Virus genome (UHGV): UHGV-0138819
Source of the DNA: a virus
Length of the DNA stretch: 14,223 bases
Strand: one strand, 5' to 3'
A model generated the notes under the pieces. The model was not told the origin of the DNA and did not search any database. It was given only the letters and a program-made list of their open reading frames with translations. The translations under genes were made by a program, and so were the position numbers. Every line of letters begins with the position of its first letter. Position 1 is the first letter of the stretch. This document shows positions 1,820 to 13,681 of the stretch, piece by piece.

Positions 1820-2077
1820 ATGGCAAGATGTACAGATCAGCACCGCTATTGGGATTTTTTCGAACACTTACCCGACGACCAAGGTGGTATTGGCAGACAT
1901 AAATGTTGCGGTTGTGCTTACGAAAAAGGTTATCAAGCAGGATTAATACGATCCGAAATTTTGAACATTGATCTTGATTCCTTACATGAAAGCCAAGCAG
2001 GCACTGTCCGTCATAAGAGTCCACATGCAGCCTATGCTCAAGGATATTTAGATGGTATTACAGCATCTTATCGGTAA
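1820..2077 (+). CDS. Hypothetical small Cys/His-rich protein (85 aa)
   Basis: ORF with AGGA 6 nt upstream of the ATG. Contains HKCCGC and two AYxxGY repeats. No family recognised. Confidence 0.45.
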   Translation: MARCTDQHRYWDFFEHLPDDQGGIGRHKCCGCAYEKGYQAGLIRSEILNIDLDSLHESQAGTVRHKSPHAAYAQGYLDGITASYR

Positions 2078-2109
2078 TAGCCGCCTAAAAGACAGGAGAT
2101 ACGCTATTT

Positions 2110-2541
2110 ATGTCTGGAATGTTAGCAAGCACAGCGGCCGCTGTAGGAATAATTGATAAAGCTGTAGGAATTGCAAAGAAACTTGCTGATGATGGCGGTG
2201 AACTCGATAAGGCGACGCTTAAACTTGAGCTTGCAAACCTCATGACAGAGCTTGCCAGTGTTAAAATGGAAGTTATCACCACCCAGGCGCTACTTTTTGA
2301 AGCGGAACAGAAGAACAAGCAACTTGAAAACCAATTGAAAGATAAGGAATCATTTGTTTTCAATGCCCCTCTTTATTGGAAAAATGGTGACCAAGTTCCG
2401 TTTTGCCCAAAATGTTATGAGGGTGAAGATAAGAAAGTTCATTTACGCTTAATTGTTCACAATGGTACACCGCAACTAGGACTTCCTCCTGAAAACAAAT
2501 GGGCGTGTATGCATTGTCGTTTTTCGCACTCGAACATTTAG
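2110..2541 (+). CDS. Hypothetical protein, N-terminal coiled coil plus C-terminal Cys4 zinc-ribbon-like motif (143 aa)
   Basis: AGGAGA 10 nt upstream of the ATG. C-terminus has CPKC ...(~30 aa)... CMHC. Heptad-like N-terminal segment. Confidence 0.55.
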   Translation: MSGMLASTAAAVGIIDKAVGIAKKLADDGGELDKATLKLELANLMTELASVKMEVITTQALLFEAEQKNKQLENQLKDKESFVFNAPLYWKNGDQVPFCPKCYEGEDKKVHLRLIVHNGTPQLGLPPENKWACMHCRFSHSNI

Positions 2542-2549
2542 TAAATCAA

Positions 2550-2759
2550 TCATTTTTCGTTTTCAGAAGAGTTAAACGTCTTAGAATAGGGGCAGGATTG
2601 AGAGCGAGTCATCAGGGTAAACAGGTAAACGCTGTTTTCGTAAGTGCAAAGCCTCTTCCCGCCCTGCAACTCCTGTTCGTCGGGGTTGCTCATGGTGATT
2701 TTGCTTGCCGCAGCATTAAAAGCCAGCAACATACCGCAAATCAACAGAATACCTCTCAT
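2550..2759 (-). CDS. Hypothetical small secreted protein (69 aa) with N-terminal signal peptide
   Basis: Strong SD (AAGGGGGAGA) just upstream of the ATG on the minus strand. N-terminus MRGILLICGMLLAFNAAAS looks like a signal peptide. Convergent with the 2110-2541 gene. Confidence 0.5.
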   Translation of the reverse strand: MRGILLICGMLLAFNAAASKITMSNPDEQELQGGKRLCTYENSVYLFTLMTRSQSCPYSKTFNSSENEK

Positions 2760-2831
2760 ATCTCCCCCTTGAATGAACTGCCCTCTTCAATGCTAAATTG
2801 CATCCATCGTTCAACGATTATAGTAACAAAG

Positions 2832-2872
2832 TTGATCAATTTTACCGATCGATTTCGTAATTTCGATCGATT
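2832..2872. promoter_or_regulatory. Three GATC sites and two copies of CGATCGATT in the divergent intergenic region
   Basis: GATC at 2834-2837, 2847-2850 and 2865-2868. CGATCGATT at 2846-2854 and 2864-2872. Lies between the minus-strand gene start (2759) and the plus-strand gene start (~2928). Confidence 0.35.
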
Positions 2873-2927
2873 AAAATAATTAAAAATGTTAAGGCACATG
2901 TCGATGGTGTACTTAATCTATTCATCT

Positions 2928-3692
2928 ATGGAGGCTGTTTTGAAAAAGATTCTTGCATTACCTCTTATGTTCTTTTCCTTCTCGTCCTTCTCTGAAGGCG
3001 TTTCGTCTACAGATGTACAACCATACCCTGAGTACCTGGCGGCCTATGTAAAAACGTTGATTGCTGCTGGATGTGAAGAAACATTGAAAGGCGGTTCTGA
3101 GGACGTATTGATCAAACGGGCAACGGAGGGAATGAAGAAGGGCACGACGGGTTACGATAATGTACACAATGCTATCGTGTTGGGGGCTGGTTTCGGTAAT
3201 GGACTGAAGGAAAAAGGAAAACTTATCACAAAAGAAAAAATCGCGATTGATAGTTGTGGTGGTGCAGCGGCCTATACCATGATGCAAAAAGAATTTATAA
3301 AAACGGTCGTTGCTAGTATGACTAATCCGGAACAATCGCAGGTTGCCGATAGTAAACCCAAAGTGCCAGCTTCTGATGATGCAATTTACCGTACAAAAGC
3401 ACTAGCTCTGGCTGAACTTTATAAAGCTAACGAGGTTGCAGCCGATGACAAAATTGGTGGTCGTAAGGTGGAAGTAACCGGAACTGTACAGGACATAACA
3501 AAAAATTTCACGGATGATGTAGTTCTTAAACTTGAAAGCGGTAATCGCTTCATGCCAGTCAGTCTGAGTATGTCTGATTCAGAAAAGGCGAAAGCGTCGA
3601 AATTGGAAAAGGGCCAGAAGATCACCGTGACTTGCGAAAAGATGCAGTTTTTCATCGGTGCACCGTCTGGCGGAAACTGCACCTTTAACTAA
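2928..3692 (+). CDS. Hypothetical secreted protein (~255 aa) with signal peptide and a possible OB-fold-like C-terminal domain
   Basis: Long ORF ending TAA 3690-3692. N-terminus MEAVLKKILALPLMFFSFSSFSEG looks like a signal peptide. Start ambiguous: ATG 2886, 2898, 2928, or TTG 2940 preceded by GGAGG at 2930-2934. The OB-fold resemblance is my guess. Confidence 0.6.
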   Translation: MEAVLKKILALPLMFFSFSSFSEGVSSTDVQPYPEYLAAYVKTLIAAGCEETLKGGSEDVLIKRATEGMKKGTTGYDNVHNAIVLGAGFGNGLKEKGKLITKEKIAIDSCGGAAAYTMMQKEFIKTVVASMTNPEQSQVADSKPKVPASDDAIYRTKALALAELYKANEVAADDKIGGRKVEVTGTVQDITKNFTDDVVLKLESGNRFMPVSLSMSDSEKAKASKLEKGQKITVTCEKMQFFIGAPSGGNCTFN

Positions 3693-3706
3693 TCTGTCAT
3701 ACGGTC

Positions 3707-3727
3707 TGCCGGGTAAAATTCCCGGCA
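3707..3727 (+). other. Hairpin just downstream of the cargo CDS (7-bp stem TGCCGGG/CCCGGCA, 7-nt loop), no U-tract
   Basis: Inverted repeat seen directly. Not followed by a T-run, so terminator function is uncertain. Confidence 0.3.
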
Positions 3728-4986
3728 ACTCATCTACCCCACCTCATGGATGTCCCTGCTATTTGACGATCCAGCTTACATGCTCTTGCTGAAAATATCT
3801 TACGGCTCTCTGGGCCAGGTGCCTGACGTGACAGACGATCCCTCAATAATTTCTTATCTTCTTGCTGAAATATCGCAGAGCCGACAGGCCCAGTAACGTA
3901 TTTCACCACTTCATCCCGTAGAGCATCACAGCAGGGAAAACTTGCCGCAATAGGGCATTCTACTGTTCGTTTTCTGGTCTATTTAACATAATGGTTCTTA
4001 TAAGTACTTGACTGGAATGGTCAGGTATTACTTTTCGGAACGTTGACGCGAAGCTGGGTACACAACAGCGATTTCACCAACAGAAGGAAAGCATTCAGGA
4101 GGATTCGAGGTGAGTTCTCTTGTTCAAGGATTTTGGATGAGTTTGCCTGGTCACCACACAATTTCAGGTTTCAGACCTTTGAGGCTGCCAGTGTGTCAAA
4201 CGCCATAAAAGCACTTTTTTCTGTTTACCAGCAGACACAAAGCCACTACACCGACGTTACCACAACGGGCTGAAGGTCTGCCATCACCTGGTGATATTCA
4301 CGAGCCTGACCGCCACTGTTTCGTACCATTTCCCAAAACAATGTAAACAGCCAACCCACCAATCCCTTCTACGCTCCACCAGAAGCGCTACAGTGCGTTA
4401 TCCCCCCAGATGTAAACTGACGTACCGATAATCCACGACATCCCACAGCGCGATACAGGAACCACCAGAGGACATCTGTTTTAGTTTTAATGTGTCTTTT
4501 TTATTTTTTGTAAAAAGATGGTTCAGAAAGTGGGTTGTGTTTAGCACCCATTCAATTGGCGGATTCGCCTAGGCCGCGCCATTACTGGCTTCGCTGCATG
4601 CACCACACCATAACGCCCATAGGTACAAACTTGTGATTTGTACGTTTAGTGACCACTTTAGCATGATTAACTACGGATTATAGGCTATTTGAGGTGTATT
4701 TAATCTACTTTGTTCGCAGGATAGCCAATGATAAAGATCATCCACCAAATTTTCACAGAAAACTAGTATAGGGTTGCCAATCTTCAGCCAGCGCGGAGAA
4801 TGGTCGGTATTTTCAGATGAAAGCGGGGGAGGGAGATGATCAATTCTCGGAGCGGATCAGGTGCCTGGACCGCCTCAGGTGTTGCCGTCGATTGTGCCAT
4901 TGAAGCATGACGCGGACATATCAAACCAGAAGTTTTCATCGGTACGTTGGTCGCTTGGATGACTTGGAAAATTCTCACCCGGTGAT

Positions 4987-5075
4987 ACCTGCACGATTTT
5001 CGTGTACCCACCCCCTCGATTTTCGAGCACCTACCTGCACGATTTTCGAGTAGGGGGTAGTCGATTTTCGAGCAC
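4987..5075. repeat. Iteron-like array: four CGATTTTCG-centred repeats at 22-23 bp spacing, followed by an AT-rich tract; candidate replication origin or protein-binding array
   Basis: CGATTTTCG at 4994, 5017, 5040 and 5062. ACCTGCACGATTTTCG is exact at 4987-5002 and 5033-5048. CGATTTTCGAGCAC is exact at 5017-5030 and 5062-5075. AATAATAATAAATAACAAT follows at 5076-5094. Confidence 0.55.
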
Positions 5076-5649
5076 AATAATAATAAATAACAATCTCCAT
5101 AAAAGAACTGATAAGAAAAGTACCTCCAGGTCGAGAGCACGGAATGACGGTTGGTCATTCTGTTAGTTTTAATAGTGATGCTTCTGCATCGCTCCGCTCT
5201 GCAATGGCTGGTCAGCCACTTCAGATATGTTTGTGGTAAGAAGCTCACCTTTGCTGACGTGAAACAGCCGCGCCATCTCGTGACCTTCTAACCCTCGTTA
5301 ACACATCGCTACGCTCTGTGACTCGGGTAACCCGACAGGCTACGCCAGAGAGCTACGCTCTCACTCTGTGTGGAAGCTGCGAACTTGTTCGCCATATGTG
5401 GATCGGAGCACGGCGGAGAGGACTGCTTTGCATCTGTCCGGTTCACTCCGGGGCGGCGCGGGTTGTCTAACTGACTTCCTCAGCGCCTCTCTACGGCGTT
5501 TAAATGGTGTGGGTAACACGATGGTACTGCTATAACGACGAGTCCCCGCAGAACGCGTCACAGAACGATCTAGCACTATTGACAAAGATTTTTTAAACTT
5601 GTAATGTTATGGTGATTATTATGCATTATAAAATGCTACATGATAATGA

Positions 5650-5678
5650 TTGCTATTTACAAACAAATCTGATACAAT
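5650..5678 (+). promoter_or_regulatory. Candidate sigma70 promoter for the 5824-10406 operon (TTGCTA, 17-bp spacer, TACAAT)
   Basis: -35 TTGCTA at 5650-5655 and -10 TACAAT at 5673-5678 in an AT-rich region about 145 bp upstream of the first operon ATG. Confidence 0.4.
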
Positions 5679-5823
5679 AGATTTTAGTAGGGTAATGATT
5701 TACCTACGAATCCTCGAATAATTCTGCCGTCATCACGACATTCCTTGTCAACCTCACGGCAATACAAAATGGGTTACAAATAGAACCTCCGCGAATAATT
5801 CTTTTAACAGAACGGAGAACCCA

Positions 5824-6270
5824 ATGAATAAACCAAAATCCCAACGTCTCGACCTGACCACTATGACAGGCGAGCAGATCGCTGATCTCATCCTGAACGG
5901 CAAATACACCAAATCAGCTTTGTGGGCCTTCATTAGTAGAAACGGCGGGGCAGACGCTGTACATGCTCGACTTCCTCAGATCGCCGTCTGCCTGCAAATC
6001 CTGAAGCAGGCGCGGAAGAAAGCGAAGCAGGCACGAGTGGTTAAGACGGTGCTGAAGCCTCTGAGCAATAAATATGCTGAGGGTAATTCCTTAACGCAAA
6101 TCCTGAATCCTGTGTTACAGGGCTACCGCGAGCTATATAGAGAAAAACTGAATCTGGACCTGACACCAGAACAGGTGATCTTGCTCTTGATCGCCACTGA
6201 TGGTGTGGAACGTCTGGAATCCTACGGTTACACCTGTGCGGGTGACTTCCCGACCGCAACCGCAGTCTAA
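5824..6270 (+). CDS. Hypothetical protein (148 aa), first gene of the rightward operon
   Basis: GGAGA 8 nt upstream of the ATG. No family recognised. Confidence 0.6.
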   Translation: MNKPKSQRLDLTTMTGEQIADLILNGKYTKSALWAFISRNGGADAVHARLPQIAVCLQILKQARKKAKQARVVKTVLKPLSNKYAEGNSLTQILNPVLQGYRELYREKLNLDLTPEQVILLLIATDGVERLESYGYTCAGDFPTATAV

Positions 6271-6357
6271 CAACACTGAACAAAACCTGAGCCGGTTCGC
6301 CTTTGGGCGACCACTGGCGGGAGGTCTTTTGTACCTAAAACGAGGAGGACAACTTGA

Positions 6358-6561
6358 ATGAACATCAAATTTCAACAGCACGTTTATCAGGCTCTACTAG
6401 CTGAGGCCAAAAGGCAGGACAAGCCCCTGGCACGGCTCTGTAATGAAATCTTGGAGACTGCCGCGAACATTTTCGACAACACACCAGACATCAAACCAGC
6501 ATTAGCCAGCAAGGCGACACTTTACGGAGAACAGAATGAGCAAACAGAACCGGGACAGTAA
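6358..6561 (+). CDS. Small putative ribbon-helix-helix (Arc/MetJ/CopG-like) DNA-binding protein (67 aa)
   Basis: AGGAGGA upstream of the ATG. N-terminal strand-like MNIKFQQ followed by two predicted helices (QALLAEAKRQ, PLARLCNEILETA). RHH assignment is by pattern only. Confidence 0.55.
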   Translation: MNIKFQQHVYQALLAEAKRQDKPLARLCNEILETAANIFDNTPDIKPALASKATLYGEQNEQTEPGQ

Positions 6562-7282
6562 GGATTTTGTAAAACTTGAATACAGCATTCTCGACCTTAC
6601 CGAGTACAACGGCCTGACCATTAATGGCAACATGAAAATTTTGCTATCTCTGGTTTACAGCTATGACAAAACAGGCAGAACTTATTACGAGTCTGTTGGC
6701 ATGATTGGTAAACGTTGCGGCTGCAAGCCCGAAGCCGTTCGTAATTTCAGGAACAAGCTTCGTGAAGCGGGAATGATCACTTTTGAGGAAGAGCAGGGGA
6801 GAACACACAAAATTTCTCCGGTCGAACTCGATCCATCGTTGATGGTTTTTCTTGACGATCATAATTCCACGCAGGTGAGTAATAGAAAAGTGGAAACCGA
6901 GGAGAGCGGTAAGAATGAGCAGAAACGTGATGTGGAATCTTTCGTGGTGGAACCTGCCGCGCCTGTTGCTGGAAAACCAGACGGCCTACCTGTTGTGGAT
7001 ATTCCTGTCGATGCTGATGTACCTGCCAATGATGATGCGGTGAACGCTTCTGATAGGTATACCGATGAACAATTAGGCACCAAGCTGAGGCGATGGCGCA
7101 ATTGGGGACTGGATGAAGAAGCAAAAGCGTTTTGTCTCTCTCATGGTATCAGCAGCGATGAGGACAGCATGAATCTGTTTATTCAAAATTATCATGTACC
7201 CGCACCGGAGTCAGTAGAACAACAGGTTAACGCCCCAGCAGATGAGCTGCCGCTTGATTATGATGACTCGATCCCTTTCTGA
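6536..7282 (+). CDS. Hypothetical protein (248 aa) with a putative winged-helix DNA-binding segment and acidic C-terminal region; candidate replication initiator or regulator
   Basis: GGAGA 5 nt upstream of the ATG. Overlaps the previous ORF by 26 nt. Segment YESVGMIGKRCGCKPEAVRNFRNKLREAGMI resembles wH/HTH domains. C-terminal half is D/E-rich. Confidence 0.55.
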   Translation: MSKQNRDSKDFVKLEYSILDLTEYNGLTINGNMKILLSLVYSYDKTGRTYYESVGMIGKRCGCKPEAVRNFRNKLREAGMITFEEEQGRTHKISPVELDPSLMVFLDDHNSTQVSNRKVETEESGKNEQKRDVESFVVEPAAPVAGKPDGLPVVDIPVDADVPANDDAVNASDRYTDEQLGTKLRRWRNWGLDEEAKAFCLSHGISSDEDSMNLFIQNYHVPAPESVEQQVNAPADELPLDYDDSIPF

Positions 7283-7296
7283 TACTGGAGGAATAA

Positions 7297-7818
7297 TTGT
7301 GTGATGTTGCCAACAGCCTGACGGCTGAAACCCTTACGGTGCGAAGCACTTTACCAGAGGTAAACAAATCCGGTGCTGACGCCCCTGATTTGTCCCGTTT
7401 TTACAAGGCCCGCTCTCGTGATACCTCGTTGATCGAGACTGCTAAAAAAATGCTCGTTCACGGTTACACCCCAGGCAAAACGGCGCTGCTCCTACGCTTG
7501 CCGTATGACCTGGTAAAAGGCCTTTACGATAACTCGTGGAATCCTCGCTGTCGCAAGATAAGTAATACCAGTCAGTACGCTACTAAGCGAATGGCCCGAA
7601 TGTACTACGAATCCGGCGCAATGCTGGCAAAAATCTGTGCTGACCTTCAACTGCCTCTATTCACTGTGGTAACGCTGCTCAAGCGTGAAGGAATCACTGA
7701 AAAAGAAATGGCATCTCGAATGCCTGTTAGTGATGATCCGTTGTTCATTGAGTACCGGAAGACTATTTCACGCAAGCAGGCAGCGCCCCAACGCCGATCA
7801 CCACGACTGCATTATTAA
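7297..7818 (+). CDS. Hypothetical protein (173 aa), possible tandem HTH-like segments
   Basis: TTG start 5 nt after GGAGG (7287-7291). No family recognised. Confidence 0.5.
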   Translation: MCDVANSLTAETLTVRSTLPEVNKSGADAPDLSRFYKARSRDTSLIETAKKMLVHGYTPGKTALLLRLPYDLVKGLYDNSWNPRCRKISNTSQYATKRMARMYYESGAMLAKICADLQLPLFTVVTLLKREGITEKEMASRMPVSDDPLFIEYRKTISRKQAAPQRRSPRLHY

Positions 7819-7836
7819 TACCCCAGCCGGGGAAAC

Positions 7837-8265
7837 TTGACCCTATTTGAATATTTATCCTTTCTGCCGTTAGCGGTAGCTGTTCTCCAATGGCTTCGTG
7901 ACGGCCTGGACCTCTACAGGAAACATAACAATATGAATAACATTGAAGCAATCCGCGCCAGTATCCGGGAAGCAATGACCGCAGGAACAGACGAACCGGA
8001 AGATCTGAACAAATCCGCTGAAGAAGCATTGGCGGAGGCGGTGCAGAGTTACCTGTCCGCTTCGACTGCAACAGCCAGCGAGCCAGCCCCAAAAAGTGGT
8101 AAAACCATCAAGGAAAAAGGGATCGCTCTGTGCCACCAAGCCCAAGGTTATAGCGCTAATCTGCGTCCGGTAAGTCTCATGATGAAGGCAAGTCTTGATG
8201 AGCTAACACCTGAACAACGCGCCGCGCTTGAGCGTCTGGGTTACGATATCAATCAGGGGGTGTGA
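7837..8265 (+). CDS. Hypothetical protein (142 aa from TTG 7837, or 111 aa from ATG 7933)
   Basis: TTG 7837 preceded by GGGGA. In-frame ATG at 7933 preceded by AGGAAA. Its stop TGA (8263-8265) overlaps the next ATG (8265-8267). Confidence 0.5.
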   Translation: MTLFEYLSFLPLAVAVLQWLRDGLDLYRKHNNMNNIEAIRASIREAMTAGTDEPEDLNKSAEEALAEAVQSYLSASTATASEPAPKSGKTIKEKGIALCHQAQGYSANLRPVSLMMKASLDELTPEQRAALERLGYDINQGV

Positions 8266-10406
8266 TGTCTGGCACAAATAAGATTGTTACCAGCACCGTT
8301 AATGAAATCTCGTGGATCACAGACGATGCCTCATATCAAAAAGCCAAAAAGAAGATTATCTCGCTTAAGGCTGCTCATGAGAAACCAGCTAAAGCGCTTG
8401 AGAAGGCCCAGAAGCGGACCGTCCAGAGTGAAGGCAAAGCAGCACTAGCCGCAGCGAAAGCCCAGACAGCGAAGCTACGCCAGGCTGAACAATTGTCAAA
8501 ACAGCAACAGAAACAAGCTCAGATACAAGCCAAAATGGAACGGGATGCAGTCTCCCACGCTAATAAAATGACCTCATTACAGGCGCGTCAGTTATCCCAG
8601 CAGGAACAGGCCGCACGGCAGAATGCCAGACTAGCAGCGATATCTGACAAGGTGAGACAGGCGAGTCGCTCCCGTGCAATGACCTACAATCCCAACATGC
8701 CTGGAGTTCACTCCGATCCATCTCTGGTGGCACGTCAAAATGCAGCGATGAACCGTGGTCACGGCGCTGTTGCTGCTGACATCGCAGCCACCAAAAAGGC
8801 GATGGCCTTGGAGGAGAAGCGTCAGCGTGAGAAAGAGGCAGGCCTTAAGCGCGAGGTGACTTATTACAACAGTTTGCGCCGTAGCGCTCTGACTCTGGCA
8901 AACGTGAACGGCGCTGACGTTGCAACCCGGTACAAAGCCATCAGTGCAGCAAAAGAGGCACTTAAAGCCCAGAAAGAAGAGCGCTATACGGTTGAAGAGA
9001 CCCGCTTCGAAATGGCTCGTATCACCACCGAATTACGCAAGCAGGCTCGTCTGCAACAGCGTATGACCCGTGAGCAGAAAGCCGCAGGTGTTCGTGCTGG
9101 TCGTGTACGCACAGAAAGCCGTGGTGGTAGAGCTGGTCTTGCAGCTGCTGGTGTTATTGGTGGTGCGTCGTTAGTGGGTAGTATGGGCGTTTCTCGTGTC
9201 GGTCAGACCCTCCAGGGAAGCCTTGAGCGCTCTCGCGATGTGAAAAAACTCCAGCAGTACGGGATCAGCAACCTTGAGTTCGCTGCACTTCAGGATCTCT
9301 CGATGAGCCGTGTTGGTTACTCACTGAGTGCTGACAAGCTGGCTGACCTCAACAAGGACACAACCGAAAAGGCCGGGGAATTGTTAAACACCGGCTCTTT
9401 CAAACGTAACAAGAAAACTGGACAGGTGAATTTCAGCGGCGGTGGCGAGTTCGCAGATATCATCAACAATGTGCTGACCTCCACCAACGGTAACCAGAAG
9501 GTAGCACAGAAGGTGATCGGAGAACTGCAAAAGCTGGATTTTCCGACCTTCATCACTTACCTGAAACAGTTGCAGAAAACTTTCAAATGGACGGACAACC
9601 AGACCCGGCACCTGGCTGAGGCTGTGAATGATGGTTCGGTCTTCCTCGAAGTGTTCAATGATGAGGGGCAGGGACTTATCCAGCGTATGCATCAACTCTC
9701 TTCTGAAGGATGGACCCTATCTGATGCGCAGCAAGCCAACCTCGATAAACTGGCGGCGTTAGGTGCTGAGTACAACCGAGTGCAAACCAGCCTTGCAGAT
9801 CATTTCTCAGCCTCGTTTGTTGAAGGCCTGGGGCAGTACGCTGCCAATACTGAAACTCTACGTCAGAAGATGACTGGACTGATCCCAATTTCCGATGCCC
9901 TCGGCGTTGCCCTTGGTGAGCTAACCACCAACATTCTCTCCTTCTCTGGTCGAGTCGGTGAAGAACTTAAGAAAGGCGCGACATTGCCGGATGCGGTGTA
10001 TACGAGCGTGGTAGATGAATCTGCAAACGGTGCTGCCGATTGGATTAAGGAAAAGACAGGCTTTGATCCACGTAGCATCGGTCAGACGCTTAAGCAGATT
10101 TACCCGTGGCTGGATAGTTCAGCACCGAGCAATATTGGCTCAGGCACGGCGTATAACGATCCAGCGCTAGCGTTGAATGTTCCTAGCCTGAACTATCTGA
10201 CACCCCAGCAACCGACGTTTACGGTTCCGACAATTGACAGCATGACGCTGCGACAGCCGATTCCTGTCAGTGTTACCGGGCAAGCGAACATTAATCAGCA
10301 GATGGATGTGTTTGTCCATGACGATAAGATCGCAGGGCTGGTTGATACCAAGATAAGGGAGAACAACCACGCGCAGAATAACCTCATCCTTGGGATTGCA
10401 GACTAA
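8265..10406 (+). CDS. Large hypothetical protein (~713 aa): Ala/Lys/Gln-rich coiled-coil N-terminal ~300 aa, Gly-rich hydrophobic segment, unrecognised C-terminal region
   Basis: Uninterrupted 2.1 kb ORF with start overlapping the upstream stop (TGATG). Hydrophobic GLAAAGVIGGASLVGSMGV mid-protein. No Walker A, no relaxase HxH motif, no primase zinc-finger pattern seen. Confidence 0.7.
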   Translation: MSGTNKIVTSTVNEISWITDDASYQKAKKKIISLKAAHEKPAKALEKAQKRTVQSEGKAALAAAKAQTAKLRQAEQLSKQQQKQAQIQAKMERDAVSHANKMTSLQARQLSQQEQAARQNARLAAISDKVRQASRSRAMTYNPNMPGVHSDPSLVARQNAAMNRGHGAVAADIAATKKAMALEEKRQREKEAGLKREVTYYNSLRRSALTLANVNGADVATRYKAISAAKEALKAQKEERYTVEETRFEMARITTELRKQARLQQRMTREQKAAGVRAGRVRTESRGGRAGLAAAGVIGGASLVGSMGVSRVGQTLQGSLERSRDVKKLQQYGISNLEFAALQDLSMSRVGYSLSADKLADLNKDTTEKAGELLNTGSFKRNKKTGQVNFSGGGEFADIINNVLTSTNGNQKVAQKVIGELQKLDFPTFITYLKQLQKTFKWTDNQTRHLAEAVNDGSVFLEVFNDEGQGLIQRMHQLSSEGWTLSDAQQANLDKLAALGAEYNRVQTSLADHFSASFVEGLGQYAANTETLRQKMTGLIPISDALGVALGELTTNILSFSGRVGEELKKGATLPDAVYTSVVDESANGAADWIKEKTGFDPRSIGQTLKQIYPWLDSSAPSNIGSGTAYNDPALALNVPSLNYLTPQQPTFTVPTIDSMTLRQPIPVSVTGQANINQQMDVFVHDDKIAGLVDTKIRENNHAQNNLILGIAD

Positions 10407-10440
10407 AATCATCGTTCCGTCGAAAATGGCGCAGCAAATT

Positions 10441-10460
10441 GGCCCACACGAGAGAGGGCC
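10441..10460 (+). terminator. Weak terminator-like hairpin after the 714-aa gene
   Basis: GGCCC (10441-10445) pairs with GGGCC (10456-10460) around a 10-nt loop, followed by a T-rich stretch (GTTATTGTTTTTGTTGTTG). Confidence 0.25.
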
Positions 10461-10490
10461 GTTGAATTCGCCATGTTATTGTTTTTGTTG

Positions 10491-10520
10491 TTGCAAATGA
10501 TAATCATTCGTGTTAAAATA
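10491..10520 (+). promoter_or_regulatory. Fur-box-like palindrome (AATGAT-A-ATCATT) overlapping a candidate sigma70 promoter (TTGCAA, 18-bp spacer, TAAAAT)
   Basis: Perfect 6-1-6 inverted repeat at 10495-10507 inside 10493-10511, about 14/19 match to the Fur consensus GATAATGATAATCATTATC as I recall it. -35 TTGCAA 10491-10496, -10 TAAAAT 10515-10520. Confidence 0.35.
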
Positions 10521-10926
10521 ATATACAAGGTGAATTACAACAGCCAAATGTTTTCCCTTCTCCTTAGGAATCAAAGTGCGCTTTTCCCAGAGCGCCTTTT
10601 CTCATACAGCCAATATTCGCACCCTCTCACGGTAAGGTTAGGCCATTGCCGCTGGCTGTATCAGAAAAGATTTTCTCCGACCTTGGATCGGGGATTTGCC
10701 AAAGCCTTTCATCCTCGGAAGGCCGTCTTGCCAGACGAAAACTGGCATTGAGTGCGGCAGCGAAGATATGAGGTCTCCCGCTGCTGTGCTCCCTCATTCC
10801 TGAAGCGTGACCCGCCGATCATGCTTTCCAAATCTCTCCATCAGAAAATACCATCGTGAAGCTATTAGCAACGCATGTTGCTAACCCGTAAACGGGTGAA
10901 TTTCATCATCTCCGATGATCTACCAA

Positions 10927-10962
10927 CCGGGGCAGGCGTTTTCCTGCCTCCGGCTCTTTTTC
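10927..10962 (+). terminator. Terminator-like hairpin (CCGGGGCAGG / CCTGCC-T-CCGG) followed by CTCTTTTTCT
   Basis: About 10-bp GC-rich stem with one bulge, T-rich tract a few nt downstream. Confidence 0.4.
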
Positions 10963-10984
10963 TGTTGGGAATACAAATAAAAGA

Positions 10985-11010
10985 ATGCCGTCCGATGGAC
11001 GGTATTTTTT
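10985..11010. terminator. Rho-independent terminator, probably bidirectional
   Basis: Stem ATGCCGTCC / GGACGGTAT with loop GAT, then TTTTT on the plus strand. The plus-strand AAATAAAAG just upstream gives a U-rich tract on the minus strand. Confidence 0.6.
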
Positions 11011-11049
11011 CAACACAACCCGGCATATTCGCCGGATTATAAAAATTGC

Positions 11050-11412
11050 ATGGAGATACAACAAAATATGGCATTCGAACATGAAAGCAAAACCCCACAG
11101 GATGTATTGGTTTATACCGATAGCCCGATCTTTCATAAGCGCACCGTGATCTTTGATCTGGCTGCTGATGTGACTTGTGGTGATGTGATTAACCCGACCA
11201 CTGGCGCGGCATACGTTGCAGCCGATGCTGATAACTGTGCTGTAGCTCTGCAAAATCAAATCGCTGGTGATGCCCGTAGCCTGGTCATTTCAGACCGTGG
11301 CTGTGTGTTCAATCCATCTGGTCTGGTTGTAGCGGCTGCTGCAAAAGATGCTGCTTACGCTGCCCTTGTTAAGCAAGGCAACCGCATTGCTGACGCAAAC
11401 ACTGCAATCTAA
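11050..11412 (+). CDS. Putative phage head decoration-like protein (120 aa, or 114 aa from ATG 11068)
   Basis: Small Ala/Gly/Val/Asp-rich protein immediately upstream of a ~340-aa capsid-like ORF, the lambda D-E arrangement. Product call is inference from size, composition and gene order. GGAGA at 11052-11056 fits the 11068 start. Confidence 0.5.
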   Translation: MEIQQNMAFEHESKTPQDVLVYTDSPIFHKRTVIFDLAADVTCGDVINPTTGAAYVAADADNCAVALQNQIAGDARSLVISDRGCVFNPSGLVVAAAAKDAAYAALVKQGNRIADANTAI

Positions 11413-11430
11413 TCAAGGAGTGATAACAAT

Positions 11431-12447
11431 ATGAAATTAAGTGATTTTACTAACCTTTCCGGTCAGTTTGTGAAGCCAAGCGGCGAGGGGTTCCTTCTGT
11501 CCAGCCTGGGGATCTTTACCAGCCGTCCAAGTGATACGCAAATCATCGCGCTCGACACACTGGAAGATGTGCAGCGTGAAGTGACCAAATCTGTTGCCCG
11601 TTATGGTTCTGAAATGTCCGGTCTAAACTTCCCTAAAGCGGCTAACGTGACTGTTCAGGCTCCACTGCATGTCTACAGCTCAACCATCACCAGCCAGGAT
11701 TGGCAGGGGAAACGTCAGCCGGGAACAAATCGCCAGATGACCGCTGAAGATGTAGTTGCTAATCATACCCTGAAGCACTACCTGCAAACCCGCCGTGATG
11801 TTGAATATGCCATGGCGCAGAGCCTGCTTCACAATACTGTAGAGGCGACACACCTTCGTGAAGGTCCTGATCTGAACTGGCAAACCTTCTGGGGTATTAA
11901 CCAGCCGTCTGCTGTGGTGAAAACTGGCATCAGTGCCAACGTTATTACTGAGATGCAGAACGCTGTCACGCTGCTGAAGAAAAATCTGGGTGGCTGGTCT
12001 TCCAGCATCAAGCAGGTTTATCTGCTAGCGAGTCCGAGTCTTTTCACCGCCATTCAAGGCAACCCAACCGCATATCAGGCGGCTCTGTTTGGTGCTACGT
12101 CCCGTGACATCATTTTCCCTGACACTTTGGGCGCATATGATCGATACAACATCGGGCGCGTAACTGTAGTTCAGGTTGACGATCCGCTATACGGCATTGC
12201 AGATGGTGAAGGCTACATGCTGGCGACGTTCTCCAATGTTGTTGAAGGCGACCTTTCACCTTATATGACTTACCAGACTCCGGCGAGCCGTCATGCTGAC
12301 GTTGCTAATGGTCCGGTTTATCCGTCTTACCATTACGTTCTGCGTGATAAGTTCATGAATTATGAGGTGGTCAGCGAGCTATCACAAATTCAGATCCCAA
12401 TGCGTCCAGACTTCGTTTTGAAAATTACGATGGATGACGCGGCGTAA
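11431..12447 (+). CDS. Putative major capsid protein (338 aa), possibly lambda gpE-like
   Basis: AGGAG upstream of the ATG. Length and position after the small decoration-like ORF fit a major capsid protein. Family assignment not verified. Confidence 0.6.
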   Translation: MKLSDFTNLSGQFVKPSGEGFLLSSLGIFTSRPSDTQIIALDTLEDVQREVTKSVARYGSEMSGLNFPKAANVTVQAPLHVYSSTITSQDWQGKRQPGTNRQMTAEDVVANHTLKHYLQTRRDVEYAMAQSLLHNTVEATHLREGPDLNWQTFWGINQPSAVVKTGISANVITEMQNAVTLLKKNLGGWSSSIKQVYLLASPSLFTAIQGNPTAYQAALFGATSRDIIFPDTLGAYDRYNIGRVTVVQVDDPLYGIADGEGYMLATFSNVVEGDLSPYMTYQTPASRHADVANGPVYPSYHYVLRDKFMNYEVVSELSQIQIPMRPDFVLKITMDDAA

Positions 12448-12509: not shown

Positions 12510-12722
12510 ATGAAATTAGCTTTGATCGGTACTGGCAACATGCCGCTGATGCAGTGGATTCTAGATGGCAAGGGCGATGATGCGATTATCAACATGTCAG
12601 CGTTAGCACGCAGGCTTGAGTGTAGTCGTTCCAGCCTACTTGACCGCATCCATACGCATGGATTCGACAGCGCTATTAGGTACTACCTCAACGAACAGCG
12701 ACAACGAAAACTGAAAACATGA
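12510..12722 (+). CDS. Small HTH-like protein (70 aa); candidate DNA-binding, excisionase or packaging accessory
   Basis: Strong SD (AAGGAAAGGAGA) 6 nt before ATG 12510. The ORF track extends it to 12459, but the SD supports 12510. INMSALARRLECSRSSLLDRI resembles a helix-turn-helix. Confidence 0.55.
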   Translation: MKLALIGTGNMPLMQWILDGKGDDAIINMSALARRLECSRSSLLDRIHTHGFDSAIRYYLNEQRQRKLKT

Positions 12723-12723
12723 G

Positions 12724-12749
12724 AGCCGGGTTAATCCCGGCTTTTTTTA
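12724..12749. terminator. Strong rho-independent terminator shared by convergent genes
   Basis: AGCCGGG-TTAAT-CCCGGCT followed by 7 T (12743-12749), 1 nt after the plus-strand stop. The hairpin overlaps the last codons and stop of the minus-strand CDS. Confidence 0.8.
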
Positions 12750-13366
12750 TGTACTTTGCTGAAGTCAAAAAGATTGTCAAATTTAATGATATCTAATCCA
12801 GAGATAGCGTGATTAACATCTTTCATCATTGCGCCATGTTCATCATAAGCGTTACGTATTGCCATGAATTCTTCTGGTGTTATCTGTGCTTTAAGCAAAG
12901 CCTGCATGATGAGAGTCATCAGTTTTGAGATGGCTATTTGCGTATTACCAGAAGATCGAAGAAGGGCGTTGAATGGCTCCCAGGAAACCTTTTTAATCAG
13001 AACATTATAGTGACTTAACTTGATGAAAGAGCTACCAATGCGAAAGGTATTTTCCGTCATATCTTTCAAGGATTCTTGAATATGATAATAGCTTTCTTCG
13101 TCGGCTTTTTGTCCTGATTTCGCCAGTGTGTCGAGAAAAGTCATAATGCGGTTTAAGTCAAAGCGCATACGATTGTAACGGCTTCTGGTGCTATCAATTT
13201 CTTCTTTAAGAGCGATTGCTGAATCAATTGCCCGCTCCATTTTTCTCGTCTTCACAATCTCCTGAAGTTTAACCCCTCCGAAGATGACGCCGCCAACCAC
13301 ACTCAACGCTGTTACAGCATTCGAAGCGATAGAGATAATGTTATCCCATGCTTGTAAATCCATCAT
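12731..13366 (-). CDS. Hypothetical membrane-anchored protein (211 aa) with one N-terminal transmembrane helix; candidate exclusion or defence gene
   Basis: AAGAGG SD before the ATG on the minus strand. N-terminus IISIASNAVTALSVVGGVIFGGV looks like a TM helix. Appears AT-rich by eye. Convergent with the capsid operon, adjacent to attR. Confidence 0.65.
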   Translation of the reverse strand: MMDLQAWDNIISIASNAVTALSVVGGVIFGGVKLQEIVKTRKMERAIDSAIALKEEIDSTRSRYNRMRFDLNRIMTFLDTLAKSGQKADEESYYHIQESLKDMTENTFRIGSSFIKLSHYNVLIKKVSWEPFNALLRSSGNTQIAISKLMTLIMQALLKAQITPEEFMAIRNAYDEHGAMMKDVNHAISGLDIIKFDNLFDFSKVHKKSRD

Positions 13367-13435: not shown

Positions 13436-13556
13436 CCTGTCACACATAGACCAAAAGGGCCGCTTTTACCGTTTACAAGACTTCCCGCTGGCATTACTAT
13501 CCTGATCAGGGATTAATGAGGAGCATTAATCGCAAGCTTTTGATTTTATAGTACAT

Positions 13557-13627
13557 GACTCGGGGTGCCCTTCTTTGTGAAGGCTGAGAAATACCCGTAT
13601 TACCTGATCTGGATAATGCCAGCGTAG
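13557..13627 (+). repeat. attR: element-derived riboswitch-like 5' arm plus shared core; right copy of the 71-bp direct repeat
   Basis: Differs from 188-258 at three positions (TT for GC at 13575-13576, T for C at 13601). Canonical host sequence resumes after 13627 (GGAAGTCACGG...). Confidence 0.8.
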
Positions 13628-13681
13628 GGAAGTCACGGACCACCAGGTCATTGCTTCTTCACGTTATGGCAGGAGCAAACT
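13557..13681 (+). promoter_or_regulatory. TPP (thi-box) riboswitch in the thiM 5' leader, hybrid of element-derived 5' aptamer half and host 3' half plus expression platform
   Basis: GGGGTGCCCTTCT..GTGAAGGCTGAGAAATACCCGTAT.ACCTGATCTGGATAATGCCAGCGTAGGGAAGTCACGGACCACCAGGTCATTGCTTCTTCACGTTATGGCAGGAGCAAACTATG matches the E. coli thiM riboswitch as I recall it, apart from three substitutions in the 5' half. Confidence 0.85.

Follow-up and report, generated by a model that had tools for sequence, protein, structure and literature searches.

The satellite P4 uses the capsid protein of phage P2 together with an external scaffold of its own, Sid. It is an 11.6-kb element of Escherichia coli, which is found integrated or plasmid-borne and which has a shell of triangulation number T=4 and a decoration-type protein, Psu (see PMC7552001). 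Imitation of assembly proteins has been described for pathogenicity islands of Staphylococcus aureus (SaPIs), where CpmB imitates a scaffold (PMC10945586) and Ccm of SaPIbov5 imitates a capsid protein (PMC8569155). The phage-inducible chromosomal island (PICI)-like element (PLE) of Vibrio cholerae, a satellite of phage ICP1, has small T=4 capsids (PMC10945586), and the capsid-forming PICIs (cf-PICIs) are satellites of Enterobacteria, which form capsids from their own HK97-fold proteins and obtain other parts from the helper (10.1101/2022.09.08.507074). The EPIPs of Mycolicibacterium, satellites of about 11 kb, encode a major capsid protein and a tape measure and have altered tails; tape measures are otherwise not known in satellites (preprint PMC12822802). 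Here we analyse a stretch of 14,223 nucleotides (the window), which is filed as virus genome UHGV-0138819 and which represents a piece of an E. coli chromosome, with 100% identity to strains AREA_C483 and TC24. A first reading made from the letters alone (the sequence-only reading) had pointed to a decoration-like and a capsid-like gene at 11050-12447, in the absence of terminase, portal and protease genes, and had proposed a satellite with a shell protein of its own; this interpretation is partly supported. In our judgement it is moderately probable that the 13,369-bp island in the window is a satellite of large virulent myophages, in which the gene pair would constitute a shell module building its own small capsid.

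The two genes are real, and the proposed arrangement of a protein of about 115 residues directly followed by one of 338 residues was confirmed. The first open reading frame (ORF) extends from 11050 to 11412 and codes for 120 aa when read from the earliest ATG; the RefSeq start lies at 11068, which yields 114 aa. All homologues start with MAFE..., in agreement with the latter position, and the true start has a GGAG ribosome-binding site with which the ATG at 11050 overlaps. The second ORF (11431-12447, 338 aa) begins 18 nt past the stop codon of the first and is preceded by AAGGAG. Both genes lie on the plus strand, as do the integrase gene and the other genes of the island between 5824 and 12722. 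The 114-aa protein had been called Ala/Gly-rich, which holds for alanine (20.2%) but not for glycine (5.3%). Pairwise ratios of nonsynonymous to synonymous substitution rates (dN/dS), calculated with orthologues from Klebsiella-, Enterobacter-, Kluyvera- and Pantoea-type hosts, lay at 0.05-0.10 in the case of the 338-aa gene and at 0.07-0.30 in that of the 114-aa gene; dS values reached up to saturation for orthologues in other genera. Across genera, amino acid identity amounts to 86-99% for the 338-aa protein and 77-96% for the 114-aa protein, compared to 35-87% for other conserved genes of the island, of which these two are the best conserved. From this substitution pattern we conclude that the pair consists of intact, functional genes under strong purifying selection and not of chance ORFs.

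The 338-aa protein (11431-12447) is strongly predicted to be an HK97-fold major capsid protein of the lambda-E/phi92-gp124 type, and shell assembly is predicted with it. As a single sequence it scores below the gathering threshold of Pfam Phage_cap_E (PF03864; 17.2 versus 22.9 bits, residues 23-305 aligned to profile positions 19-301 of 329), it matches phrog_29, "major head protein", with E=2.5e-9, and several of its orthologues carry precomputed PF03864 matches. When a profile built from 20 sequences of the family was searched against the PDB, the best match was gp124 of phage phi92 over the full length (E=2.7e-20, residues 4-333 against 8-332), followed by the phiTE capsid protein (E=1.2e-13), 9zbi (E=1.9e-12) and then the proteins of Sf14, Bas63 and ICP1. 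The capsid-like assignment of the sequence-only reading is thus borne out, and membership in the PF03864 family is established through this profile, the window protein alone remaining below threshold. An AlphaFold2 model of moderate confidence (pLDDT 58, pTM 0.64) contains a long spine helix at residues 105-134, and a Foldseek search of the PDB with this model returned 128 chains at E≤1e-3. The best of these are capsid proteins of tailed phages, with that of phiTE first (9cul, E=3.5e-14, TM score 0.60) and those of Bas63, ICP1 (coat protein), Sf14, YSD1, P1 and lambda next; encapsulins appear at about E=1e-5 only. The HK97 fold, which had been suggested as a test of the capsid assignment, is thereby recovered in the model. 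Identity to any capsid protein encoded by 50,697 phage genomes is about 24%. The length equals that of phi92 gp124, from which it follows that the 338-aa protein has no fused scaffold (delta) domain.

The 114-aa protein (11068-11412) is probably a remote gpD-type head decoration protein, by a sequence link that is weak and transitive. Its match to Pfam HDPD (PF02924) reaches 20.6 bits at a gathering threshold of 29.1 (residues 6-103 on profile positions 4-110 of 116), and 28 of 38 close family members match the same profile, again below threshold. A profile search of 1.84 billion representative proteins yielded only 47 relatives; in the family extended in this way, HDPD matches 12 of the 42 aligned members, the best with E=5e-19. 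The top PDB match of the extended profile is the phiTE "head stabilization/decoration protein" (E=0.013), which is a trimeric beta-tulip protein (PMC11972413), and phi92 gp123, the gene of which adjoins that of the capsid protein gp124, was found at E=0.35. A poor AlphaFold2 model from the 38-sequence alignment (pLDDT 47) gave as its five best Foldseek matches in the PDB chains of about 123 aa from the Sf14 and Bas63 capsid entries (E=0.5-2.6), which are unnamed in the output and presumably represent decoration proteins. No similarity to lambda gpD was detected by hhalign with the family, phmmer and hmmsearch of the close family against the PDB returned nothing, and tblastn of the protein against phage genomes gave no match. 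The position of the gene is the canonical one: it lies immediately upstream of the capsid gene and is co-inherited with this E-type gene in all related islands, and the same decoration-capsid order is found in the phages naam, phiTE, FBKp34, ICP1, Ro1, pEa55 and 2L372X. The proposed decoration-like character is therefore supported by position and by the HDPD matches of the extended family, less firmly than the capsid assignment.

The element that carries the pair can be delimited precisely. A 71-nt direct repeat is present at 188-258 and 13557-13627 (both on the plus strand) in copies that are 96% identical and 13,369 nt apart, which defines the island of 13,369 bp, and the island is flanked by two core genes, rcnR and thiM. 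The repeat is contained in the thiamine pyrophosphate (TPP) riboswitch of thiM, and for this reason the riboswitch occurs twice: the left attachment site, attL, is located in a copy at 182-278 just upstream of the integrase gene, which scores 53.6 bits at an Rfam gathering threshold of 54.3, and the right one, attR, in the intact copy at 13551-13647 preceding thiM (73.6 bits). These two copies were the only hits of an Rfam scan of the whole window, a tRNA gene search of the window found none, and megablast of the whole window against the 50,697 phage genomes produced no match. Among the ORFs of the window, Pfam, PHROG and NCBIfam searches identified no portal, terminase, protease, connector, tube, sheath, baseplate or lysis match, and tblastn with the portal, large terminase subunit (TerL) and protease of phage relatives detected no remnant at E<0.3 in either the 660-nt spacer upstream of the pair or the whole window, in agreement with the absence of terminase, portal and protease noted at the outset. 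It had been pointed out that a full head module elsewhere would turn the locus into a piece of a normal prophage. Since attachment repeats and core genes bound the island, a head module elsewhere in the same element is excluded, and we rejected the ordinary prophage on the same ground.

Upstream of the pair, the island encodes a 110-aa protein (7933-8265), hereafter mini-scaffold, which provides a specific link, at the level of sequence, to a presumed helper. It matches phrog_2970 with E=2.7e-16, and by tblastn the ~50 residues at its C-terminus (GKTIKEKGIALCHQAQGYSANLRPVSLMMKAS...) correspond in 321 phage genomes to the extreme N-terminal part of a protein of 325-369 aa. Identity in this motif amounts to 76% over 38 aa with naam_20 of Vequintavirus, to 54-57% with Mydovirus and Henunavirus proteins and to 61% over 23 aa with gp124 of ICP1. 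In naam, phiTE, Ro1, pEa55, 2L372X and ICP1, the gene with the motif is located between the S78_2 prohead protease gene and the decoration and capsid genes; in phiTE it is phiTE_211, just upstream of the decoration and capsid genes, which has given its name to Pfam Phage_phiTE_211, a family that is precomputed on island orthologues. The motif-bearing gp124 of ICP1 has been demonstrated experimentally to be a scaffold (PMC10945586). At the very N-terminus of the scaffold-position proteins (loci L022, L023, L028-L031) the motif of about 30 residues reads (K)GIAxxHxxQG(Y/G)SAN.RP.SLL.KS, and it is kept across ICP1, Aeromonas phage 2L372X and the rV5-like phages (321 genomes), in contrast to the divergent remainder of the protein. 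We found no account of the function of this N-terminal motif. Several unannotated "Campylobacter phage" records (MG065676.1, MG065658.1 and MG065661.1, 59-135 kb) show a 76.3% match over residues 90-127, like rV5-like E. coli phages, and may be mislabelled or contaminated.

The motif variants of the islands co-vary with phage genera. The motif of the Aeromonas island (QGGAAS) best matches that of Aeromonas phage 2L372X (QGGSAN), with a score of 74 versus about 30 for enterobacterial phages. In one Pantoea genome with two islands, the motif of one best matches phiTE (Certrevirus, score 138) and that of the other Erwinia phage pEa55 (Henunavirus, score 146), and the best matches of the window motif are pEa55 (154), Ro1 (148) and naam (141). 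The hosts of the motif-carrying phages overlap those of the islands. This co-variation, together with the overlap in hosts, is the pattern expected of helper-specific mimicry and does not prove the presumed interaction; the assignment of helpers draws on the similarity of sequences and the co-variation seen in a limited set of islands and phages.

The mini-scaffold gene is followed by that of a tape-measure-like protein of 713 aa (8265-10406), which matches PHROG tape-measure families down to E=8.7e-14 and which, over 260-370 aa, is 28-31% identical to gp168, a protein that occupies the tape-measure position in Klebsiella phage FBKp34 (Stephanstirmvirinae). Orthologues of the 713-aa protein match Pfam TMP_3, and the gene is missing from some islands. 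The pair is thus not an isolated two-protein system, which had been the fallback reading in case the capsid assignment failed, but belongs to a conserved module with the mini-scaffold and the tape-measure-like protein. By sequence, the closest phage relatives of this module are large virulent myoviruses, namely Vequintavirinae, Stephanstirmvirinae and ICP1-like phages. The comparison with lambda-like heads had to be revised in this respect, as the nearest relatives with the same decoration-capsid order are not lambda-like temperate phages.

The island belongs to a recurrent family. Capsid genes of the close clade (>75% identity) occur in E. coli, Klebsiella, Raoultella, Enterobacter, Kluyvera, Pseudocitrobacter, Silvania, Dryocola and Pantoea, and always in islands of the same gene order, while integration sites and integrases vary (thiM riboswitch or tRNA-Gly, with the same backbone and a different integrase). 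An island of E. coli H8 (L010, NZ_CP010172.1) shares the attachment site with the window, as well as an integrase that is 90% and a tape-measure-like protein that is 57% identical, but its decoration/capsid pair is of a different type (34% and 26% identity, respectively); the shell module has therefore been exchanged as a unit. Pantoea cypripedii (L014, CP024768.1) harbours two neighbouring islands of the family (6311-11333 and 13378-21020). These carry different capsid types and motif variants, one Certrevirus phiTE-like and the other Henunavirus-like, and one of them is without a tape-measure gene. In the Aeromonas islands, the capsid protein of which is 28% identical, an S78_2 protease gene, a gene for a 98-aa phiTE_211-like protein, one for a 110-aa protein and the capsid gene follow each other in phage order, which suggests that the family originated when such a head module was captured and reduced.

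Members of the family also exist outside the chromosome. Five E. coli "plasmids" (L020, NZ_CP035869.1; L021, CP134895.1; NZ_CP020521.1; CP148565.1; L024, NZ_CP043822.1) encode a capsid protein that is 24-26% identical and preceded by a 111-aa gene. Four of the five are circular, 13,238-13,697 bp in length and recorded as "non-mobilizable"; the fifth, p3RM10740 (39.6 kb), is a head-to-tail trimer, and strain RM10740 also possesses a chromosomal island of the window type. L020 and L021, which were examined in detail, contain the 111-aa upstream gene, a tape measure and a helix-turn-helix (HTH) protein, whereas an integrase is not annotated; the tape measure of L021 exceeds the Pfam TMP_3 threshold, and this plasmid also encodes a Dit-like tail protein. 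The plasmid forms examined include a gene-free region of 2.2 kb. Only finished plasmid records were counted as evidence of circular forms. Assembly contigs of about 13 kb had been considered as further circular forms and were set aside, since the two that were inspected, L016 and L017, include the integrase end and breaks at the attachment repeats are the likelier explanation. The integrated islands with definable ends measure 13,248, 13,369 and 13,698 bp, so that three integrated islands and four plasmid forms all fall between 13.2 and 13.7 kb despite different cargo, integrases and capsid types. One further locus (L008) looks rearranged, its attachment-site copies being only 8.5 kb apart.

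Taken together, the island shows several of the features by which phage satellites are recognised. It is a small mobile element with integration and replication functions of its own (an integrase, attachment sites, iterons, an initiator-like HTH protein and plasmid sister forms), its set of virion and lysis genes is incomplete, and the link to a helper consists of sequence mimicry of the scaffold motif, which is 76% identical to that of Vequintavirus and varies with the phage genera, the interaction itself being presumed. The circular sister plasmids of 13.2-13.7 kb, together with the iterons and the O-like HTH protein, count as an own replicon. The variable defence-like cargo beside the integrase, which resembles that of other satellites by analogy, may be counted in favour of a satellite as well. 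The satellite interpretation offered by the sequence-only reading is consequently backed by comparative evidence, i.e. a bounded island, the scaffold-motif link and a recurrent family.

How such a satellite might operate can be outlined as follows. After infection by a large virulent myophage (rV5-, phi92- or phiTE-like, 115-150 kb), the island would excise and replicate from its own iteron origin. Its capsid and decoration proteins would then form a small shell (about T=3-4) with room for approximately 13.4 kb; for comparison, the head of phiTE has T=13 (PMC11972413), P4 packs 11.6 kb and the PLE particle has T=4 (10.1101/2025.06.18.659913; PMC10945586). The narrow range of 13.2-13.7 kb across diverse members fits a limit set by capsid capacity. 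The copied motif of the mini-scaffold might bring the portal and/or the S78_2 prohead protease of the helper into the island shell. The portal is a candidate partner, since in P2/P4 and 80alpha/SaPI an internal scaffold is believed to be required for the portal to be incorporated (PMC10945586); so is the protease, since its gene directly adjoins that of the scaffold in the phages and that of the mini-scaffold in the Aeromonas islands. The helper would contribute the terminase, the neck and the contractile tail that complete the particle, the tape-measure-like protein may enter or alter helper tails, and interference with helper production would be a side effect. Tentatively, and with clearly less assurance than for the single island, we propose that elements of E. 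coli, Klebsiella, Enterobacter, Pantoea and Aeromonas could form a hitherto unrecognised class of satellites, integrated or plasmid-borne and 13.2-13.7 kb in size, that parasitise large virulent myophages and have their own shell, a mimic of the scaffold N-terminus capturing the helper portal or protease, and their own tape measure on a hijacked contractile tail. A full-text literature search returned no description of this island family; subscription literature was not covered by it, and a prior description is possible.

Several points weigh against the satellite interpretation. Excision, packaging and transfer by a helper are inferred from sequence, and neither an excisionase nor a small-terminase match nor a recognisable derepression or induction module was found in the island. 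In a search for cos or pac sites, blastn of both non-coding regions against phages returned only a 38-nt double hairpin, which is described below. Three loci were matched in IMG/VR, with no evidence of virion origin, and the element is rare, as only 12 of 5,426 complete E. coli genomes have this capsid type. The capsid model is of moderate confidence (pLDDT 58), the fold of the decoration protein was not modelled well (pLDDT 47), and at about 24% identity to helper-type capsid proteins the presumed compatibility with the helper portal is unproven. Finally, a tape measure is a feature for which the satellite interpretation does not account.

The main alternative, which we regard as unlikely, is a pure decoy island that is not packaged at all and serves to protect the clone against phages, its capsid, decoration, scaffold-motif and tape-measure-like proteins poisoning the assembly of invading phages of the Vequintavirinae type by titrating the portal or protease or by causing tails to be mis-measured. 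The mimic of the scaffold N-terminus has exactly the look of a competitive inhibitor, the islands hold other defence-like cargo, and a packaging signal or small terminase is not recognised; moreover, known satellites interfere with their helpers too, so that the two readings overlap. However, PADLOC assigned none of these proteins to a defence family, and a decoy would not need a full-length capsid protein kept at a dN/dS of about 0.07 plus a decoration protein of its own. A size range of 13.2-13.7 kb in members that differ so much can hardly be accounted for unless packaging sets a limit, and near-identical capsid genes across genera imply efficient horizontal transfer.

We consider it somewhat less likely still that the island capsid protein co-assembles with that of the helper, for example at the vertices, and thereby changes the size of the helper capsid. 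There is a precedent in Ccm of SaPIbov5, a satellite homologue of a capsid protein which redirects the shape of the helper capsid (PMC8569155), and fold and length of the island protein equal those of the helper-type capsid proteins. Nevertheless, the identity of about 24% to any phage capsid protein is low for a co-assembling partner, and the matching decoration protein, in Aeromonas accompanied by an own protease, points to a self-sufficient shell. In addition, two unrelated types of capsid and decoration proteins (26% and 34% identity) are co-inherited as pairs on the same backbone.

The two remaining readings are contradicted by the data. A decaying prophage remnant, in which the pair would be without present function, could account for the many missing structural genes and for the rarity of the element in E. 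coli, but is very improbable: the reduced set of genes is found again in the same order in Aeromonas and Enterobacteriaceae alike, at capsid identities down to 28%, purifying selection is strong, pseudogenes of portal, terminase and protease were not found, the attachment sites are intact and the origin core is ultra-conserved, circular episomal relatives exist, and the related phages are virulent and do not form prophages. Least probable of all is a compartment resembling an encapsulin or a gene-transfer agent, i.e. a DNA-free shell or one that packages random host DNA, as an HK97-fold shell protein without portal or terminase and the weak encapsulin matches in Foldseek might suggest, since phage capsids match about nine orders of magnitude better (1e-14 versus about 1e-5 for encapsulins), the neighbouring gpD-type decoration, scaffold-derived and tape-measure-like proteins are features of virions, no cargo enzyme gene is adjacent, and the context is that of a mobile element with integrase and origin.

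The rest of the island fits into three parts. At the left end, the tyrosine integrase (347-1702) is supported by Pfam Phage_integrase (29.2 bits), phrog_1 (E=6.9e-26) and the RefSeq annotation as tyrosine recombinase. The left riboswitch copy, which is slightly degraded, is situated directly upstream of the integrase (320-1702) and behind what is natively the promoter side of thiM, so that expression of the integrase might be responsive to TPP. At the other end, a promoter-like site (13472-13500) lies within the island, and the intact right copy of the riboswitch precedes thiM, which may therefore be driven from an island promoter. Next to the integrase, a variable cargo region (1820-3692) comprises three small ORFs (1820-2077, 2110-2541, 2550-2759 on the minus strand), which belong to the families phrog_3941, phrog_1244 and phrog_4641 without assigned function, and a protein with an oligonucleotide-binding (OB) fold (2940-3692) that matches Pfam tRNA_anti-like (E=8e-16) and phrog_8545, a superinfection exclusion (Sie)-like family (E=6e-22). 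Related islands carry other cargo at this place, either an ATP-dependent nuclease or a methylase together with an NmeDI-like endonuclease.

The central part starts with 2.1 kb of DNA (3693-5823), which is considered non-coding because substitutions show no 3-base periodicity. It contains four to five iterons (core CGATTTTCG) at 4986-5075 and, after these, an AT-rich stretch. A block of 500 nt around them (4868-5367) is nearly invariant, with 2-5 mismatches per 250 nt compared to 30-60 in its flanks, and islands with a near-identical core differ by 10-25% elsewhere. Other islands possess their own iterons at the equivalent position. Judged by these sequence features, the iterons and AT-rich stretch in the ultra-conserved core look like a replication origin. 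Rfam returned no family for 3693-5823, which leaves the remaining ~1.5 kb of conserved DNA without genes unaccounted for. The conserved operon that follows begins with a 148-aa protein (5824-6270; orthologues in nine loci at 27-88% identity) and a 67-aa protein (6358-6561; orthologues in six loci), both without a family match. The next gene (6536-7282) encodes the HTH protein, a candidate replication initiator of the lambda-O/DnaD-like kind, which matches Pfam HTH_36 (E=4.6e-4) and PHROG initiator/helicase-loader families to E=5.6e-6 and has relatives annotated as DUF6945. A conserved 173-aa protein with two HTH-like segments (7297-7818; orthologues in nine loci including the plasmid form) shows weak similarities to HTH families. 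It is a candidate, by sequence features, for a regulator or for a packaging-specificity factor like the small terminase subunit (TerS); when tested as a small terminase, it gave generic weak HTH similarities only.

The third part surrounds the shell genes. A non-coding spacer (10407-11067, plus strand) upstream of the decoration gene contains a double hairpin (10865-10896), a terminator-like hairpin with a T-run (10988-11010) and a hairpin CCGGCATATTCGCCGG followed by ATTATAAAAA. The terminator-like hairpin and the subsequent CCGGCATATTCGCCGG hairpin with ATTATAAAAA are conserved among 11 islands directly upstream of the decoration gene, which suggests a regulated late expression of the decoration and capsid genes, possibly by helper-dependent read-through or promoter use. 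Some islands have an insertion of 60-150 nt between the conserved hairpins and the ribosome-binding site. The double hairpin is composed of two adjacent perfect hairpins in 10859-10896, TTAGCAAC-gcat-GTTGCTAA and CCCGT-aa-ACGGG, and gives a 38-nt match (89.5%, E=4e-4) to an intergenic stretch of two Salmonella phages of the genus Seunavirus (Vequintavirinae). In phage SalP219 the matching stretch is located about 200 nt from the end of the record, with identical stems and one different loop. Among the islands fetched, the double hairpin is present only in the window and its closest relative (L002); it could be a signal for regulation or packaging that islands and phages have in common, or else a short piece of DNA that was exchanged. 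Downstream of the capsid gene, a conserved 70-aa protein (12510-12722) has orthologues in 12 loci, always at this very position, and no family match, while a 211-aa protein encoded on the minus strand (12731-13366) is variable cargo present in two other loci only and without a significant family.

If the island is indeed a satellite of large virulent myophages, the consequences reach beyond this locus. The grafting of a short helper-scaffold motif onto a satellite protein would be a new form of mimicry, and the motif points to a conserved function, so far not characterised, that the N-terminus of the scaffold has in a very large group of myophages (321 genomes). The likely helpers of the rV5, phi92 and Mydovirus types are lytic phages much used for therapy and biocontrol directed against E. 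coli, Klebsiella, Salmonella, Cronobacter and Erwinia, so that a resident element which interferes with such phages and travels in their particles would affect both efficacy and gene flow. Furthermore, a set of non-mobilizable E. coli "plasmids" of about 13.5 kb would be given a function.

With regard to known systems, the closest counterpart of the module is the head module of the Vequintavirinae, Stephanstirmvirinae and ICP1, which comprises portal, S78_2 protease, a scaffold of the phiTE_211 family, a beta-tulip decoration protein and capsid protein. The island shares with it the decoration-capsid order, protein sizes, the scaffold N-terminal motif and the FBKp34-related tape measure, and the Aeromonas islands have additionally kept the S78_2 protease in phage order. 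Unlike these phages, the island is without portal, terminase, connector, sheath, tube, baseplate and lysis genes, its scaffold-derived protein measures about 100 aa instead of 325-369 aa, its capsid protein is about 24% identical, and it is an integrative or plasmid-borne element of 13.4 kb in contrast to virulent phages of 115-150 kb.

Among the satellites, cf-PICIs are described as encoding all capsid and packaging proteins and taking the tails alone, whereas portal, protease, connector and terminase are missing from the island according to Pfam, PHROGs, NCBIfam and tblastn, for which reason it was not assigned to this group; it is also without AlpA or a primase-type PICI backbone and adds the scaffold mimic and the tape measure. 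Classical PICIs (int - alpA - primase/replicase with TerS or capsid-redirecting genes) were discarded as well, as the island has no AlpA, primase or TerS and has its own shell protein. The resemblance to P4 consists in the small size of an E. coli element that exists in integrated or plasmid form, but none of sid, psu, delta, alpha (the primase), epsilon and alpA was matched in Pfam or PHROGs, and a P4-like element was rejected accordingly. As in the case of CpmB and Ccm, a satellite protein imitates an assembly protein of the helper, and the island encodes both a scaffold-derived and a capsid protein. SaPIs, however, use the capsid protein of the helper, on which CpmB acts, while the island copies the scaffold N-terminal motif and its partner is presumed; there is no sequence relationship to CpmB or Ccm. 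PLE is likewise a chromosomal satellite of a virulent myophage, and the head module of ICP1 is of the same type (S78_2 protease, motif-bearing scaffold, decoration and coat proteins), yet PLE takes the coat protein of ICP1, uses the external scaffold TcaP and encodes no capsid or decoration protein, and the sequences are unrelated. EPIPs also encode a small terminase, a head-tail adaptor and stopper, a scaffold and a serine integrase and parasitise a temperate siphophage, whereas the island integrase is of the tyrosine type, TerS and adaptor are not recognised, and the phage relatives are virulent myophages. The island is also set apart from MiniFlayer and from Phanie, which is reportedly a phi29-like system and unrelated to it. 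From this comparison we conclude that the island is most likely a phage satellite, new in its gene set and in its device of mimicry, and as such it would be intermediate between the users of helper coat protein, such as P4, SaPIs and PLE, and the cf-PICIs, which make everything but tails.

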